Shown here in pieces: positions 3,881-43,622 of a DNA stretch of 51,201 bases. Made by a program: the position numbers and the translations under genes. The notes under the pieces were generated by a model that saw only the letters and a program-made list of their open reading frames with translations, did not search any database and was not told where the DNA came from. The stretch is from Candidatus Woesearchaeota archaeon (GTDB lineage: Archaea; Nanobdellota; Nanobdellia; Woesearchaeales; GW2011-AR9): NCBI GenBank assembly GCA_018303445.1, contig JAGVYE010000046.1:1-51201 (forward strand), given 5' to 3'. Numbering within the stretch: position 1 is the first letter of the stretch; each line of letters starts with the position of its first letter.

Positions 3881-4426
3881 ATGGATTATGTTACAAAAGG
3901 AGTTATGGCATTAGCAGTGATGGTTGGCGTGGCGGGATGTGCAACGCCACAGCAGGAAAGGCTTAAAGGCAGTGTTCTTGATGTTCCTGGCAAATGTTTG
4001 GATTATGATACTTTTGATGAGGACCAGCATCCAGACTGTAGAGCTATTTTAGGGAGAGAAACAGACCACTTAGGAGGAATTGACGACTTTCTGGATGATG
4101 TAAATGTTGGAGCTGCTCCTTCGCCTCATCCTGTTTTTCAAGGAAATAATCCTTATGGGATGATCAAGCGTTTAGGTGTTCCAGATACTCTGATCACCCC
4201 TCCAAGCGAATGGAATGAAAGGTGTTATGATACTTCACTTTCCAACCCAAACATTCTCACTGATGGATGCGGCTACCATCAAGGTGTTGATGAAAGTCAA
4301 ATAGAAATACTTTTAGACTATGCTCTTCCCGATGAAACTCATAAGAAGCCGATAGAAATAAAAAGTGAAGAGACGAGGACAGGCACGACGACGCAAAGCA
4401 TAACAATCATAGAACACGAAGAGTGA
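3881..4426 (+). CDS. predicted secreted lipoprotein, acidic and Cys-containing, function unknown
   Basis: Signal peptide ends in the lipobox-like VAGC. GGGGGTG lies 7 nt upstream of ATG 3881. Four further Cys are consistent with extracytoplasmic disulfides. Confidence 0.55.
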   Translation: MDYVTKGVMALAVMVGVAGCATPQQERLKGSVLDVPGKCLDYDTFDEDQHPDCRAILGRETDHLGGIDDFLDDVNVGAAPSPHPVFQGNNPYGMIKRLGVPDTLITPPSEWNERCYDTSLSNPNILTDGCGYHQGVDESQIEILLDYALPDETHKKPIEIKSEETRTGTTTQSITIIEHEE

Positions 4427-4504: not shown

Positions 4505-4750
4505 CTACCAATGCTGGATATACAAAATGTCTTTTCCATCCGCGTTTTCACAAATAAAATAATAACTTCGGTGCCGCGGCTCCACCCACTTTAATTTTAC
4601 ACAATCCTTAGGTAGGTAGGTTCCGAAAGCATCTTCTTTAATAGTATTATCCGATAGAGGTTTATCTGATCGAGGTGAAGAGCATCCACTTAAAAAACCA
4701 GCCAACCCCATAACCGCCATTCCTTGTTTTAAAGTTTTATTTATAACCAA
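4505..4750 (-). CDS. small predicted lipoprotein, function unknown
   Basis: N-terminus MVINKTLKQGMAVMGLAGFLSGCSS has a positive n-region, a hydrophobic core and a canonical LSGC lipobox. TTG start. Confidence 0.5.
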   Translation of the reverse strand: MVINKTLKQGMAVMGLAGFLSGCSSPRSDKPLSDNTIKEDAFGTYLPKDCVKLKWVEPRHRSYYFICENADGKDILYIQHW

Positions 4751-11345: not shown

Positions 11346-12793
11346 AAAAAATTTCAGCTTTCGGGAGTATTGTTCAGGAGCGGCCCTTATTATTTATCGT
11401 TGTGGGATCACTTCTGGTACGCTTATTATACCTTCTTTTAGACTGGCCGCTGTGGTGGGACTCTCATGTGTATATAGGCATGGGAAAATATATTTTTTCA
11501 CAAGGAGGAAGCGGAATTTGGGAAGTGTACAGGCCTTTGTTACATCCGATAATGTTGGGTGGTTTATGGAAAGTGGGGTTTAACCCTTTCATAATGGGAA
11601 AAATTTTGGATGTCCTTTTCTCGACTATTTCTATTTACTTGGTCTACCTTATCGGAAAGAAAATATTTGATGAGAAAATAGGCCTCGTTGGAGCGTTTAT
11701 TTTTAGTATAGACGCGATGTTTATTACGATCACGGGACTTATTCTGGCTGATCCCTTGGCGCTTTTTTTTGGTTTATTAGGGGTACTGTTCTTCCTTAAA
11801 GAAGATTGCAGATGGGCTGGCTTGGGAAGTGGCGTGTGCTTGGCATTCTCATTCTTAACGCGGTTTCCATATGGGATTTGGTTTGGATCAATGCTCATTA
11901 TTTTAGCTTTGCAAAAAGAAGGAGCGAGATCTAAAATAAAGAAAGGGCTCTTCCTTTGCCTGGGCTTCTTTATTCCTGTTGGGGCATTTTTATATTTTAA
12001 TTACCTCCGTTATGGAGATCCGCTTCTTCCCCTAACCACTGGTTCATGGATTATTACGACCGCAACATGGCTATATGGGTCGGGAATTTTCTTTTATTTC
12101 AAAGAGTTTTTTCTGGCGAACCCTGTTTATCTTTTCTTTTTCCCATCAGTATATTTTTTCTTCAAGGAACGATTATGGAAAGAAAATGGAGAAGGGGTTG
12201 TTTTTATTGTTCCTCTTTTAACACTTCTTTATTTTCTCTACGTCCCCAGAAAAGAAGTCCGGTATCTTTTAGTGGCCTTGCCTTTTTTTGCGTTAACCGC
12301 GGCCTATGGCCTGAGATTCACTTTATATTGGCTTAAAAATAAGACAAAACCAATTATCCTGTCACGGGCTTTTGTTGTCATTTGCGCCATTCTTATTCTT
12401 TTGCCTGTCCCAACAACATTAAATATCGAACGTGTGCCAATCTTCACTGAGAATATTAAAGTGGCGATAACGCAGTATAATGTCACGGGGTTAGTATTAT
12501 CTTCAAGCCCAGCATATGTTTCATTTTTAGATCATCCTTTAGCTACCCTTGACGGAATGACCTTTGCCCCTGAACGCTATGGGATGTTTCAAGGAAGATA
12601 TGCCATTCTCTTTGTTAATGATTGTGATTTAATATGTTCTGTTACCGACGGAGAGTGTAATGAAAGACGAGAACGCTTGTTAGGAAAGATAGAAAAGGAA
12701 AATAAGAGAATTTTCAGAGAAACTTATATCTTTGAAGATGCTAGCCTTAAGTGCAGATATTCAATGTATCTGCCAATGAAGGTGCGAAAATGA
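11342..12793 (+). CDS. polytopic GT-C-fold membrane glycosyltransferase (PMT_2/ArnT/STT3-like)
   Basis: More than 10 TM helices. WWDSHVYIGMG loop follows TM1, and there is a C-terminal soluble domain. ATGA overlap with the upstream gene; alternative ATG at 11333. Confidence 0.58.
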   Translation: MKKISAFGSIVQERPLLFIVVGSLLVRLLYLLLDWPLWWDSHVYIGMGKYIFSQGGSGIWEVYRPLLHPIMLGGLWKVGFNPFIMGKILDVLFSTISIYLVYLIGKKIFDEKIGLVGAFIFSIDAMFITITGLILADPLALFFGLLGVLFFLKEDCRWAGLGSGVCLAFSFLTRFPYGIWFGSMLIILALQKEGARSKIKKGLFLCLGFFIPVGAFLYFNYLRYGDPLLPLTTGSWIITTATWLYGSGIFFYFKEFFLANPVYLFFFPSVYFFFKERLWKENGEGVVFIVPLLTLLYFLYVPRKEVRYLLVALPFFALTAAYGLRFTLYWLKNKTKPIILSRAFVVICAILILLPVPTTLNIERVPIFTENIKVAITQYNVTGLVLSSSPAYVSFLDHPLATLDGMTFAPERYGMFQGRYAILFVNDCDLICSVTDGECNERRERLLGKIEKENKRIFRETYIFEDASLKCRYSMYLPMKVRK

Positions 12794-13644
12794 AGCTGGA
12801 AGACATTATAAGTTTGGCGCGAGTGCGGCAATGGTATAAGAATCTCGTCGTCTTTCTCGCCATCTTTTTCTCCGGTGGCTTAGTTCAAGTTAATTTATTG
12901 GCAACAATAATAACCGCTTTTATTTCTCTGTGTTTAATTTCTTCTGCTGGATATATTATTAATGATATCCTTGACGTGAAAAATGATAGAGAAAATCCTG
13001 AAAAAAGAAAGAGGCCTCTCGCCAGTGGAAGAATCAAGAAAGGACTAGCGCTTTTCTTAATGATAATATTAGTTGCCGGGGGATTCATTATCGCTGAAAC
13101 CATCACTATTTTTTTTCTTTACAGCACTTTTTTCCTGTTTCTGGCAACCTTGTTATATACTTTTGTTTTAAAAAAAATTATCTTTGCTGATGTACTGTCT
13201 ATTGCCGTCCTTTTCGTTCTTCGGGCCGTGGCGGGAGCTTTGGCCATTAAAGCCGTGATTTCGCCATGGCTTATTTTAGGGCCATTTTTTCTCTCTCTTT
13301 TTTTGTCTGTGGGAAAGAGGCACGCAGAGTTGTCTTTGCTTAAAGAAAAGTCACAAAGGTCACGAGAGGTCCTTAAAGATTATAACTTTAGCTTGACAAC
13401 ATCTTTAATGATCATTTCTACAACGTTACTGATTATTTCTTATGCTCTTTATTCTTTCTTAAGCGAATATAATTATCTAATTTACACTATTCCTTTTGCG
13501 TTGTTCGTGATTTTCCGCTTTTACTATCTCATTCAACAAGGATCTTTCATTGCCCGCCATCCAGAAGCTGTGATACAAGATCTTCCCATGGTGATAGGGA
13601 TGGGATTATTGGTTATGGCAACAGTGATGATTATTTATGGGTGA
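12790..13644 (+). CDS. UbiA-family prenyltransferase, decaprenyl-phosphate phosphoribosyltransferase (DPPR synthase)-like
   Basis: ARVRQWYKNLVVF, YIINDILDVKNDRENPEKRKRPLASG and LRAVAGALAI...GKRHAEL...LKDY parallel the RPRQWVKN / NDxxDxxxD / GKRYAEL motifs of Rv3806c-type enzymes. ATGA overlap with the upstream gene. Confidence 0.78.
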   Translation: MKLEDIISLARVRQWYKNLVVFLAIFFSGGLVQVNLLATIITAFISLCLISSAGYIINDILDVKNDRENPEKRKRPLASGRIKKGLALFLMIILVAGGFIIAETITIFFLYSTFFLFLATLLYTFVLKKIIFADVLSIAVLFVLRAVAGALAIKAVISPWLILGPFFLSLFLSVGKRHAELSLLKEKSQRSREVLKDYNFSLTTSLMIISTTLLIISYALYSFLSEYNYLIYTIPFALFVIFRFYYLIQQGSFIARHPEAVIQDLPMVIGMGLLVMATVMIIYG

Positions 13645-38873: not shown

Positions 38874-39846
38874 TCATTCCTTTAATTTAATGAATTCTTC
38901 TTCTCTTCGATCTGAAATATAAGCATCAAGATAGCCAACAACAACACGGTGATACTTTTCGCCATTTTTAGGGATGACTTTTTCCAAAATTCCCCTAGCT
39001 TCGATTTTCTCCCCAGGAAAAGCCACCATACAATAATCACGATTGTAAAAAACTATTTTTTTAATATTTTCTTTGTTTTCTCCTCTCATCACGATAACGT
39101 CGCTAACTTCATAACATCCTGGGCGCACGACACTGCTCTTATTATCAACAACCGTTGCTTGAACCGTAACTAATCCTTGTTCTTGGTATTGTTCTTCTCC
39201 CCACTTGAACCAAACTTCTTCTTCTTTTTCTGCTGCGAAAATATTCCTGCCATTCTTCGTCGCTCTTCCAGCGAAGTGAAGGATGCTGTACTTTTTCCAT
39301 AAAAGACATCAATTTCCAAAATTGTTCTTTTCCATAGACGACAATATTAATGTCTGAAATATTTTGCATATAATGCCCCATCAGCGTTGAATACGTGACG
39401 CCAAGATCTTTCAGACGTAAGCCACTTTGCACGAGAAGTTGGACAAATTGATAGACATTCCGAAGATGGGGATCCAAGGCTTCCAAAGGCATGCTCATGA
39501 GTTCTTTTAATCCCCTTCGGGGAAAGTAAATGCGTTCTATCTGCTCAATGGGAACAGCAAAAAATAGGCGATGGGAATCATGGAAGGAACTTTTATAGAG
39601 GTAATAGGGATATGCTATTGTGAAATTTTCAATGTATTGCCGCAATCCTTCTTTTTCCACCCAAAAGTTAAGGCGATTCATCTTTCTGCTGGAGATAAAG
39701 CGATACGGTAAAACGGAAGATTCGATTTTATCAGTGGGGATGTATTTTGGCTTCACGAGAACGGCTTCTTTTGGATGCTCATTTCCATACACTTGGCAAT
39801 GAAGCCCATCTTTAGTAGTGATTATTGATGATTCATAGAAATGCAT
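38874..39846 (-). pseudogene. degenerate, frameshifted paralog of the nucleotidyltransferase/beta-rich-domain gene at 39822-40877
   Basis: The two ORFs 39145-39846 and 38874-39128 align end to end with the upstream paralog. The frame changes (+1) at the A4/T4 run at 39238-39241. About 33 aa are missing relative to the paralog. The NTase motif reads SDINIVVYG (D to N). Confidence 0.65.
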
Positions 39847-40877: not shown

Positions 40878-42258
40878 ATGTAAAAACCTCCAATGGTTTA
40901 ACTTTTAGATCTGAAGGAATGGGAACTTGAAGGATTTTCATAACGGTAGGAGCGACTTGGCAAATGTCGATATCTGGCATCATTCCTTTCTTTTTAATCT
41001 TTTTACCACTTATAACGAAAAAGCCTTGTCGGGAATGGCCAGCACTGTCTGCACCCATAGCACTTTCCCAGGAATAAAGCCCTGAAAGACCTAAATCAGG
41101 GTTTGAAGCCCAGCGAAGATCGTCAAAGTACACGGTTAAGTCCGGACAGTTTGGATCAGAGGTGTTTTTGTAAATATCTTCTGCTTTGTATACTTTTGTA
41201 TCAAGGGGATTACCTTTGTCATCAGGGATGGATTTAAGCTTTTGAATAATTTCTTCACTAATTTTAGGATAACGTGATCCAACAATTTGTTTATTGATGA
41301 AAACTCTAGCATTGTATGCTCCACTACCATAGGCAATCGTTTTTTCCATATTTATGAAAGAGCTGCTAAAACGCTGCTTTTGAGAAAGATCAACATCTTT
41401 GTGAAGAACCAAATAGCCTTGTTCTATCAGCCAATTGTTGATGTTTATTTTTCCTTCTTGCTTGATCATGCCATGGTCAGAAGCGACGATGATAACAGTA
41501 TCATCATCGAGTGCGGAGAGAAGTTCGCCCAATTTTGCGTCTATGTAAATATAATAATTCTTAATGGCATCGTGGTAAGGAGAATTGGCAATAAAACGGC
41601 GATGGGTTTCATCAAAATGGCGCCAGAGCATATGTTGCAAGCGATCTGTTCCTAACATCACGGCCATAAAAAAATCCCATTTCTCATTATGAAAGAGATC
41701 TTTTAATAAAGTAAATTGCATGTCTGTCATCAGGTAAGCACGTTTAATGAGATCTTCCGGATCGAGATGTTTATGCTCTGCTAAACCTGCAACAACGTCA
41801 AAGAAAACTTCTGTGTTGCCTAATTTCTTTATTTTTTCTTTTAATGATTCTGGATATGCGCAGTTGCTTTCAATATCGGGAGTTAAGAAATCGCTGACGA
41901 GACAGCCGCGGATAGGATGTACAGGATACGATAGAGGAACAAAGAGACCAATACTGCGTTTATTATATTCCCCGATAATGTCCCACATAACTTTACATCG
42001 GAGATTTTGTGAACTTACTAAGCGAGTTTCTCCTGAAGGTGTTTTGTAAGTATAACTGAAAACACCCAGTTCACTGGTATCTCTCCCAGAAATCATCGAA
42101 TTCCAAGCGACGATGGTATTGGGAGGAATAGTGCTGTTCATTCTGGCATAGGAGCCGTTTTCCATAAGTTTCTTTATGTTCGGAAGAAGATCACGCCATT
42201 TTTCAAAGACGAGAGAAGGTTCTCCTCCGTCCATGCCAAACAAAAGAACTTTCGTCAT
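40861..42258 (-). CDS. alkaline-phosphatase-superfamily type I phosphodiesterase/nucleotide pyrophosphatase-like protein (paralog 2)
   Basis: VLLFGMDGGEP, STIPPNTIVAWNSMISG and IVASDHGM. Lacks the LGY tail seen in paralog 1. Confidence 0.72.
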   Translation of the reverse strand: MTKVLLFGMDGGEPSLVFEKWRDLLPNIKKLMENGSYARMNSTIPPNTIVAWNSMISGRDTSELGVFSYTYKTPSGETRLVSSQNLRCKVMWDIIGEYNKRSIGLFVPLSYPVHPIRGCLVSDFLTPDIESNCAYPESLKEKIKKLGNTEVFFDVVAGLAEHKHLDPEDLIKRAYLMTDMQFTLLKDLFHNEKWDFFMAVMLGTDRLQHMLWRHFDETHRRFIANSPYHDAIKNYYIYIDAKLGELLSALDDDTVIIVASDHGMIKQEGKININNWLIEQGYLVLHKDVDLSQKQRFSSSFINMEKTIAYGSGAYNARVFINKQIVGSRYPKISEEIIQKLKSIPDDKGNPLDTKVYKAEDIYKNTSDPNCPDLTVYFDDLRWASNPDLGLSGLYSWESAMGADSAGHSRQGFFVISGKKIKKKGMMPDIDICQVAPTVMKILQVPIPSDLKVKPLEVFTYGLFS

Positions 42259-42259
42259 T

Positions 42260-42439
42260 TTAATCTATATATCCTAAGCTACGCAAGCGTTCTTTGACTT
42301 TTTCTTCATCATTCTCTGTATAGGGTTGATTTTCTTGCAGGTCTTTTTCGATGAGTGTGAGGAGATAGTGTGAAATCGATTGATTTCCAATCTTCTTTTG
42401 GATACGCTCAAGAACTTCTGAAGGAAGGAGAATTTCCAT
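42260..42439 (-). CDS. 59-aa ribbon-helix-helix-like protein with C-terminal KVKERLRSLGYID tail (below the ORF-track size cut-off)
   Basis: My translation: MEILLPSEVLERIQKKIGNQSISHYLLTLIEKDLQENQPYTENDEEKVKERLRSLGYID. GGTGG lies 8 nt upstream of the ATG. The stop is 1 nt from the next start. The tail matches the C-terminus of the 35880-37304 protein. Confidence 0.5.
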   Translation of the reverse strand: MEILLPSEVLERIQKKIGNQSISHYLLTLIEKDLQENQPYTENDEEKVKERLRSLGYID

Positions 42440-42634
42440 GATAAACCACCTTTGATGACTGCTGAAAGAGGCTTTTTAAAGGTTGTTAATCTATGGTTCA
42501 GGTTTATTATTCTCTAATTACTTTCTCCGTAGAATTTTTTGCCGTTTCTATAAAATGAAAGGGGTTCAAAATCCTAGAAATTATCAGAAGATAGTTACGA
42601 AACCTTTAAAACCAAAAATAGTATTCTCTGAAAA

Positions 42635-43015
42635 GTGGGCATTTTAAACAAAGTAATGTTTTGGAAAAAAGATGATGATTTTGATTTTGACCACCTTGCA
42701 GATAAAGAGCTGGGTGGTCACAACACTTCCTTGCAAGAAGATTTAGGATTAGAAGAAAAATCTCTCTTCCCGGAAGAACCATCATTTGAACCACAGTCCA
42801 TACCACGAAGTCCTTTAGAACAGGCACAGTTCGCCCCTCTTACACAAGCCAAACCATCCTTTCGAGAATCCCCACAACAACAGTTTAGTTCACGAGATCT
42901 GGAGCTTATTAGCAGCAAGTTGGATACGATTAAAGCCATGCTCAGTTCTCTCGAACAAAGGATGACGCAAGTTGAGAAAGCAGTAGGAGCGGAACAAAAG
43001 TCGCGTCTTTGGTAA
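42635..43015 (+). CDS. hypothetical protein: acidic, probably disordered N-terminal part plus C-terminal coiled coil
   Basis: GTG start (alternative ATG at 42656). DLELISSKLDTIKAMLSSLEQRMTQVEKAV is heptad-like. The stop overlaps the lspA start. Confidence 0.42.
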   Translation: MGILNKVMFWKKDDDFDFDHLADKELGGHNTSLQEDLGLEEKSLFPEEPSFEPQSIPRSPLEQAQFAPLTQAKPSFRESPQQQFSSRDLELISSKLDTIKAMLSSLEQRMTQVEKAVGAEQKSRLW

Positions 43016-43449
43016 TGATGAAAAAAAATTTTGTTTTCTTTTTTGTGTGTGTAGCAGTTCTTGTTTTTCTTCTCGACCAAGCTTTAAAATATTGGGTATT
43101 AGTCTTTTTGCCAGAATGGCAAAGGGGAATATTAAACATTCATTTTGTAAAAAATACCGGGGCAGGATTTGGAATTTTACAGGGACAGCCCTTGTTTCTA
43201 GGAATTATTTCTTTGGTGGTAGCGATTCTCGTGATAATTAATTATGCCAAAATTGGAAAGGAAATAGTTCCGCAATTACTCTGGGCGTTTTTTTTAGGAG
43301 GAGTGATGGGAAATCTTGCAGATAGAATTTGGAGAAGATACGTTATTGACTTTATTGACTTTTCTTTCTGGCCGGCATTTAATGTGGCAGATGCGGCATT
43401 GACAGTAGCGGTGATAGGGTTAATAGTATATTATTATTGGAAGAGATAA
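43015..43449 (+). CDS. lspA: lipoprotein signal peptidase (signal peptidase II)
   Basis: NTGAGFG, GGVMGNLADR and PAFNVADAAL (both catalytic Asp motifs). Four TM helices, about 145 aa. Confidence 0.85.
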   Translation: MMKKNFVFFFVCVAVLVFLLDQALKYWVLVFLPEWQRGILNIHFVKNTGAGFGILQGQPLFLGIISLVVAILVIINYAKIGKEIVPQLLWAFFLGGVMGNLADRIWRRYVIDFIDFSFWPAFNVADAALTVAVIGLIVYYYWKR

Positions 43450-43459
43450 TAATTAAAAT

Positions 43460-43524
43460 ATGATTTTTCCACCAGTGTATGGTTCCACTGGTGGCGTAGC
43501 CCTCACTTTAATTGGAAAAATCAT
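43460..43524. other. nested inverted repeats (possible structured RNA or bidirectional terminator) between convergent genes
   Basis: Outer 12-bp perfect inverted repeat ATGATTTTTCCA / TGGAAAAATCAT encloses an 8-bp perfect hairpin CACCAGTG-TATGGTTC-CACTGGTG. Confidence 0.4.
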
Positions 43525-43622
43525 GGTCGAAAAACCGCCCCGAGCGGAGCGACAGAGAGATCCTAAACTCCGATTAAAGAACACGCTATGAGCATCAAAG
43601 AATAGATTTTCTCAGATCTCTT

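Follow-up and report, generated by a model that had tools for sequence, protein, structure and literature searches.

A bacterial-type lspA gene and its archaea-specific partner gene are widespread among Woesearchaeota

Gene content of the locus

The stretch of DNA analysed here, called the window, is an entire contig of 51,201 bp (C3) from a genome of 1.22 Mb in 54 contigs with 95% completeness. On its plus strand lies lspA, the gene of signal peptidase II, at 43015–43449. It encodes 144 aa when read from the ATG at 43015, which is the likely start and whose A is also the last base of the TAA that ends the upstream ORF (TAATG); an alternative in-frame TTG at 43009 gives 146 aa. The stop codon ends at 43449. 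The upstream ORF (42635–43015, plus strand, GTG start) encodes a protein of 126 aa, which is called the partner protein below. Reading the sequence further upstream, we observed a TATA-box-like TTTAAAA at 42605–42611 on the plus strand, centred about 27 nt before the GTG. It may be the archaeal promoter of a leaderless or short-leader transcript that carries both the partner gene and lspA.

Directly 3′ of lspA sits a 99-nt inverted-repeat element (43453–43551, no strand assigned). It is bounded by 12-bp terminal inverted repeats and contains a hairpin. An identical (100%) second copy was found at C16:3923–4021, downstream of another lipoprotein gene. In two metagenome runs the summed contig depth at the element was 170–205x, compared with 5–10x for its flanks. 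No Rfam family matched the element. The data suggest a MITE-like mobile mini-element that is multi-copy or widely shared, or possibly a small RNA. The genes downstream of lspA encode a 169-aa CPSC membrane protein, a DsbA-like protein, and a wHTH protein. None of these three was found beside lspA in other loci, and the upstream partner alone is conserved.

Identity and active site of LspA

The ORF at 43015–43449 matched PF01252 (Peptidase_A8) with 104.8 bits (cut-off 25) and TIGR00077, the NCBIfam lspA equivalog, with 85.7 bits (cut-off 73.95). It also matched the S. aureus LspA 6ryo with an E-value of 1.5e-14. The AlphaFold2 model, built with 70 sequences, reached a pLDDT of 94.7 and a pTM of 0.88, and showed four long TM helices together with the strands of the beta-cradle. 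When the model was compared with the PDB in Foldseek, LspA structures alone were retrieved at E < 1e-3 (6ryp, 5dir, and 6ryo), and the top structural match was 6ryp (TM 0.86, E 1.7e-10). The first-pass annotation had called this ORF LspA, and both family profiles, the 6ryo alignment, and the predicted fold bear this out.

The ORF carries the NTGAGFG motif, as had been reported, along with GNLADR and FNVADAAL. These last two motifs had been taken to hold the catalytic aspartates. Both catalytic Asp residues are indeed present and the assignment to FNVAD was right, but the other residue lies in VIDF and not in GNLADR. In the 6ryo alignment the dyad was formed by D114 (VIDF) and D128 (FNVAD) in TTG numbering, corresponding to D112 and D126 in ATG numbering. 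The Asp dyad of the crystal structures is D118/D136 in S. aureus LspA and D124/D143 in P. aeruginosa LspA. The Asp of GNLADR is conserved, but it is outside the catalytic dyad. In the alignment of 70 archaeal and bacterial LspA sequences, D21, K25, N47, G49, G96, N100, D103, V110, D112, P120, F122, N123, and D126 were invariant (ATG numbering), and both catalytic Asp residues belong to this set. Judged by profiles, alignment, and model, the ORF is a genuine, intact, and canonical LspA, as an enzyme a further member of the known family.

Partner gene upstream of lspA

The partner protein starts with a conserved N-terminal MxxLxKxxFWKK motif (MxxLDKLxFWKK in orthologues), followed by a variable, disordered linker rich in Pro, Gln, and Gly. 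The orthologues share a conserved C-terminal helix, usually with a terminal Trp. The AlphaFold2 model of the partner showed disorder and one confident helix (residues 86–124). Searches against Pfam gave coiled-coil noise below threshold only, a profile search of the PDB gave nothing below E 0.4, and all matches of the structure search in the Atlas had TM values below 0.45. The clusters of the partner protein contained Woesearchaeota only, the largest of them with 932 members.

The partner profile found one copy in 39 of the 41 genomes of the order, and the two genomes without it (G020 and G031) are the very ones that lack lspA. In 39/39 relatives the partner was located on the contig and strand of lspA and upstream of it, within 200 nt in 36 of them. 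Outside the order, the gene pair was also present in two of five examined genomes of the class, whereas the partner was found at 0/67 bacterial lspA loci. It is also found at L029, L030, and L088, archaeal loci whose LspA lies outside the main tree cluster, and this supports a common origin. The partner is a putative dedicated cytoplasmic accessory or scaffold of archaeal LspA.

At three loci, L006 (G032:C114), L012 (G026:C73), and G030:C5, the partner was 0.9–1.4 kb away from lspA. A 358-aa ORF of G032 begins with the LspA domain and may be a fusion.

Archaeal character of the genome and continuity of the contig

The host genome is archaeal. It gave an SSU_rRNA_archaea match of 1417 bits and encodes PCNA and a TBP with two repeats. 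In the window itself, STT3/AglB (137 bits), a RadB-like Rad51-family protein, and uS2 were confirmed, and an HTH_3 protein is present which may be MBF1. The window had been described as archaeal in character from these same genes, and the genome-level markers agree with that description. Neither Rfam nor tRNA searches matched anything in the window.

The GC content was level at 0.38–0.39 across lspA. Groundwater and soil metagenomes from 11 studies contained DNA of the window; no RNA run was listed among the datasets with this DNA, which says nothing for or against expression. Contigs from three further studies, not counting the possible source, span 41428–43482 with zero differences (X4: 41428–43364, X3: 42607–43482, X8: 42629–43366), and each of them runs from the upstream genes into lspA or across it. 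Chimerism at the 5′ junction of lspA is excluded, and the linkage of lspA to the 43 kb of archaeal genes on this side is firm. At the 3′ junction, no single Logan contig crossed 43482–43552, and the contigs stopped at 43450–43552, because the 99-nt repeat sits there. The metagenome depth was the same on both sides of lspA and the repeat. The first-pass annotation had raised a chimeric assembly as a concern; the 5′ junction is cleared by contigs from three independent studies, and on the 3′ side the equal depth and the 5′ linkage stand in for a bridging contig.

Candidate substrates and the remaining pathway genes

Two ORFs with textbook lipoboxes had been pointed out in the window, and both are real. 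The protein encoded at 3881–4426 (plus strand) has a signal peptide ending in VAGC with the Cys at residue 20, and the small protein encoded at 4505–4750 on the minus strand has a signal peptide ending in LSGC. Both are candidate substrates of LspA. For the whole genome, a simple gene call of 1319 ORFs was screened with the G+LPP lipoprotein pattern. The pattern fitted 34 ORFs including the two in the window, mostly with textbook signal peptides (IIGC, VVGC, LAGC etc.), giving a genome-wide count of about 34 lipobox proteins. After normalisation for composition, Cys at +1 after a lipobox-like context was about 4-fold commoner than the next residue and 5- to 20-fold commoner than polar residues.

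Known LspA enzymes need the lipid made by Lgt on the Cys before cleavage. The window holds no Lgt, as previously noted, and a search of the genome found one outside it, at C53:807–1511 (PF01790, 228 bits). It is located on a 14.9-kb contig together with PCNA, which lies 10 kb further along. The protein retains the residues corresponding to E. coli Y26, H103, R143, N146, E151, G154, and R239, and has a Glu at the position aligned with E. coli Y235. A gene of a lipobox protein, with a signal peptide ending in LSSC, was found 76 nt downstream of lgt (C53:807–2081).

For Lnt, no PF20154 (LNT_N) match was obtained in the 95%-complete genome. A membrane protein of the Lit family (PF07314) was found at C38:11579–11896 (L112:1294–1923) with 59.4 bits (cut-off 24) over model positions 70–176, and Lit was found in 34 of the 41 genomes of the order. 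When aligned with the B. cereus Lit 7b0o, all six highly conserved residues were kept, namely H85, H153, V89, F149, F157, and W162; the catalytic His85/His153 and the other conserved residues of the B. cereus enzyme are listed in PMC8275575.

Membrane lipids

GGGP synthase, PlsC, and PlsY were not found in the genome. CDP-archaeol synthase (CarS) was detected with 107.5 bits, adjoining one of four CDP-alcohol phosphatidyltransferases. A UbiA-family prenyltransferase at 12751–13644 of the window (82 bits) stands beside glycosyltransferases and AglB, and could be the DGGGP synthase or an enzyme of the glycan-carrier lipid. On these annotations, the encoded lipid steps are of archaeal type. Archaetidylglycerol, an ether lipid, is favoured as the probable Lgt donor because CarS, UbiA, and the four CDP-alcohol transferases are present and PlsC and PlsY are absent.

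The set of genes (Lgt, LspA, Lit with both catalytic His residues, and no Lnt) is the same as in the monoderm Lgt–LspA pathway with Lit, which yields lyso-form lipoproteins (B. cereus Lit 7B0O, PMC8275575). The lipids differ. Lit moves an ester-linked sn-2 acyl chain and needs it (PMC8275575), whereas the archaeal genome has no PlsC, PlsY, or GGGPS but has CarS. An archaeal diether anchor would have no ester-linked sn-2 chain, so the ether-lipid donor is in tension with an active Lit. A more speculative reading, which we regard as doubtful, takes the three genes to imply ester-linked acyl-glyceryl anchors, and with them bacterial-type ester phospholipids in Woesearchaeota membranes that would be scavenged or shared, e.g., from bacterial partners. 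Otherwise Lgt and Lit would be re-tuned to ether lipids, with a new Lit chemistry. Under both versions of this speculative reading, the cytoplasmic partner would be newly evolved and obligatory for LspA.

Distribution and history of LspA

As controls, the LspA and Lgt profiles matched 10 bacterial genomes and none of four model archaea. In the order, LspA was found in 39 of 41 genomes and Lgt likewise in 39 of 41. In a sample of 301 genomes of the phylum, each at least 90% complete, LspA was found in 265 and Lgt in 264. Two genomes of this sample, G261 and G262, are unpublished, and each has Lgt and LspA; without them, the counts were 263/299 and 262/299, respectively. LspA was also present in single-contig genomes, e.g., G040, G044, and G216. 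Elsewhere in the class, Lgt and LspA were missing from an identical set of eight genomes belonging to five families (G056, G069, G096, G120, G124, G127, G140, and G169). Genes kept or lost jointly in this way fit two steps of a single pathway. Inside the order, the absences of LspA and Lgt were scattered and mostly not common to both.

Among named relatives, the LspA came closest to sequences of a ‘Nanoarchaeota archaeon’ (58% identity) and of numerous ‘Candidatus Woesearchaeota archaeon’ MAGs, while the nearest bacterial sequences showed an identity of only 32–42%. The LspA phylogeny was calculated as an unrooted tree of 91 rows and 150 columns with a weak backbone. In the free tree, 20 of the 24 archaeal LspA grouped in a single cluster (SH-aLRT 88) that also took in two rows with bacterial labels, and four archaeal sequences fell outside. 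The bacterial rows nearest to the archaeal ones came from many phyla. When all 24 archaeal LspA were forced into one clade, the log-likelihood was 7.8 units above that of the free quick tree (AU p 0.60), so this alignment is consistent with one origin of archaeal LspA, which was not rejected. Because the backbone is weak, no bacterial donor could be named from the 91-row tree; the phylogeny that had been proposed as a check leaves a single archaeal clade standing and, with its 150 columns, decides neither donor nor history.

Near-universality, the constant upstream gene, and the unrejected single clade show that lspA is an old, vertically kept trait of the whole lineage rather than a feature special to one genome. 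The first-pass annotation had imagined a single archaeon making use of an LspA it had acquired. Of this, the bacterial-type LspA and the lipobox substrates in a genuine DPANN archaeon stand; the gene is not private to that organism, as the order and phylum counts show.

LspA in Methanosarcinales was considered and rejected. Two contigs labelled ‘uncultured Methanosarcinales archaeon’, L032 (CAYGYR010000003.1) and L095 (CAYJXD010000030.1), carry the Woesearchaeota pair of partner gene and lspA. The genome of L032 measures 1.4 Mb, and its Lgt match is identical in contig, coordinates, and score to that of G213, a member of the window's own order; L095 belongs to a 0.9-Mb genome. The taxon labels of both contigs appear to be wrong, and both appear to be members of the Woesearchaeota lineage.

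Proposed pathway and alternative explanations

We consider it very likely that LspA is an active aspartyl signal peptidase II which, together with Lgt, forms a lineage-wide and vertically inherited lipoprotein pathway of Woesearchaeota/Nanoarchaeia, and that it is neither a contaminant nor a recent transfer. The activity of the enzyme and the order of the steps are inferred, and the pathway would run as follows. About 25–34 preproteins would be exported with an N-terminal signal peptide ending in [LIV][IVAST][GAS]-C. Lgt would put a glyceryl-lipid on the Cys thiol, and LspA would then cleave just before the lipidated Cys. With Lnt absent, the anchor may be remodelled by the Lit-family enzyme, whose two catalytic His residues are intact. 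The lspA gene would be co-transcribed and translationally coupled with the lineage-specific cytoplasmic partner protein.

An artefact of assembly or binning, in which a bacterial lspA segment was joined to or binned into an archaeal MAG, would fit a family that is otherwise bacterial (10 bacterial against 0/4 archaeal control genomes) and assembly graphs that break at the repeat 43453–43551 just after lspA. Its probability is nevertheless negligible: the window is one whole 51-kb contig with AglB, RadB, and uS2, the GC content is flat at 0.38–0.39 across lspA, the link between lspA and the genes upstream of it recurs without any difference in contigs of three other studies, the depth is equal across the repeat, 265 of 301 phylum genomes, single-contig ones included, have LspA, and Lgt is located on the PCNA contig. 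Next to no weight falls either on a recent horizontal acquisition private to the organism or genus. LspA and Lgt are hallmarks of bacteria, and DPANN genomes are rich in bacterial-like genes; against this, LspA is near-universal in order and class, the same pair with the archaea-only partner occurs in 39/39 relatives and two genomes of other orders, the nearest bacterial identity is 32–42%, and archaeal monophyly is not rejected.

The gene could also be old and real and still not process lipoproteins, either as a relic or after recruitment to non-lipidated membrane or secreted substrates, with the lipobox proteins lipidated by an AliA-type route. This has a precedent in Haloferax, where lipobox proteins are lipidated by AliA/AliB, which are not homologous to Lgt; some DPANN also have AliA (PMC12462473). 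However, the catalytic and invariant LspA residues are kept across hundreds of genomes, LspA and Lgt were lost together in the same families as expected for one pathway, and the lipobox Cys is strongly over-represented. The requirement of known LspA enzymes for an Lgt-made lipid also speaks against such a role, and we judge it quite improbable. An alternative of history rather than of function would have Lgt and LspA come from a pre-archaeal ancestor and be lost in the other archaea, instead of one bacterial transfer into the ancestor of the lineage. It is unlikely, although it deserves somewhat more credit than a non-lipoprotein role: the archaeal sequences can form one clade, there is no identifiable donor, the nearest bacterial rows belong to many phyla, and a possible distant relation of AliA and Lgt is discussed in PMC12462473. 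Both genes are, on the other hand, absent from the four model archaea of the controls and from several families of the same class, and the unrooted tree with its weak backbone shows neither history.

Comparison with known systems

Compared with bacterial LspA (signal peptidase II, MEROPS/Pfam A8), the archaeal protein has the same family HMMs, the same predicted fold (TM 0.86 to 6RYP), the same Asp dyad, and the same other invariant residues; Lgt as the partner enzyme and the lipobox type of the candidate substrates are likewise alike. Solved bacterial structures are S. aureus 6RYO/6RYP and P. aeruginosa 5DIR/6FMS. The differences are that the host is an archaeon, that the protein is compact (144 aa against 155–170 aa) with shorter extracytoplasmic loops, and that the gene is coupled translationally to an archaea-only disordered/helical protein seen at none of the 67 bacterial loci. 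The membrane lipids at hand are probably ether lipids.

Lgt/LspA machinery had been described in the first-pass annotation as regarded as bacterial, and recent papers agree. In 2025, it was stated that no archaeal Lgt or Lsp homologues were identified and that the archaeal lipoprotein signal peptidase is unknown (PMC12462473). In 2026, Lgt was reported from RefSeq genomes as ‘absent from archaea’ (PMC13251419). LspA proved to be common in the lineage, and in the literature on DPANN/Woesearchaeota with lspA, Lgt, or lipoprotein we found no description of these genes, a search of incomplete coverage that is not proof of their absence from print. The nearest archaeal comparison is the lipidation by AliA/AliB in Haloferax volcanii (PMC12462473), which also acts on lipobox substrates and for which the expected product is also a thioether-linked lipid on Cys+1. 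In H. volcanii, however, AliA/AliB have no detectable Lgt homology and the downstream signal peptidase is unidentified, whereas the Woesearchaeota genome has the canonical bacterial enzymes.

A species-rich archaeal lineage that keeps canonical bacterial enzymes contradicts the current statements on archaea; this contradiction, the conflict in lipid chemistry, and the strictly conserved partner gene make the system of interest. Some lipoprotein-rich archaeal genomes have neither AliA nor AliB (PMC12462473), and Lgt/LspA may account for some of them. The system also gives an experimental handle on whether Lgt, LspA, and Lit can use archaeal ether lipids and on which lipids these uncultured archaea have. 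The archaea-only partner is a new lead on how LspA is fitted into an archaeal cell.

Other observations in the window

A fragment of a DDE transposase (PF01609) was observed at the contig start (101–529). At 39242/39243, the contigs of all four independent runs have 104 extra letters which are absent from the window. The NTase paralogue that appears frameshifted in the window may therefore reflect a deletion in the assembly or strain, and not a homopolymer slip.
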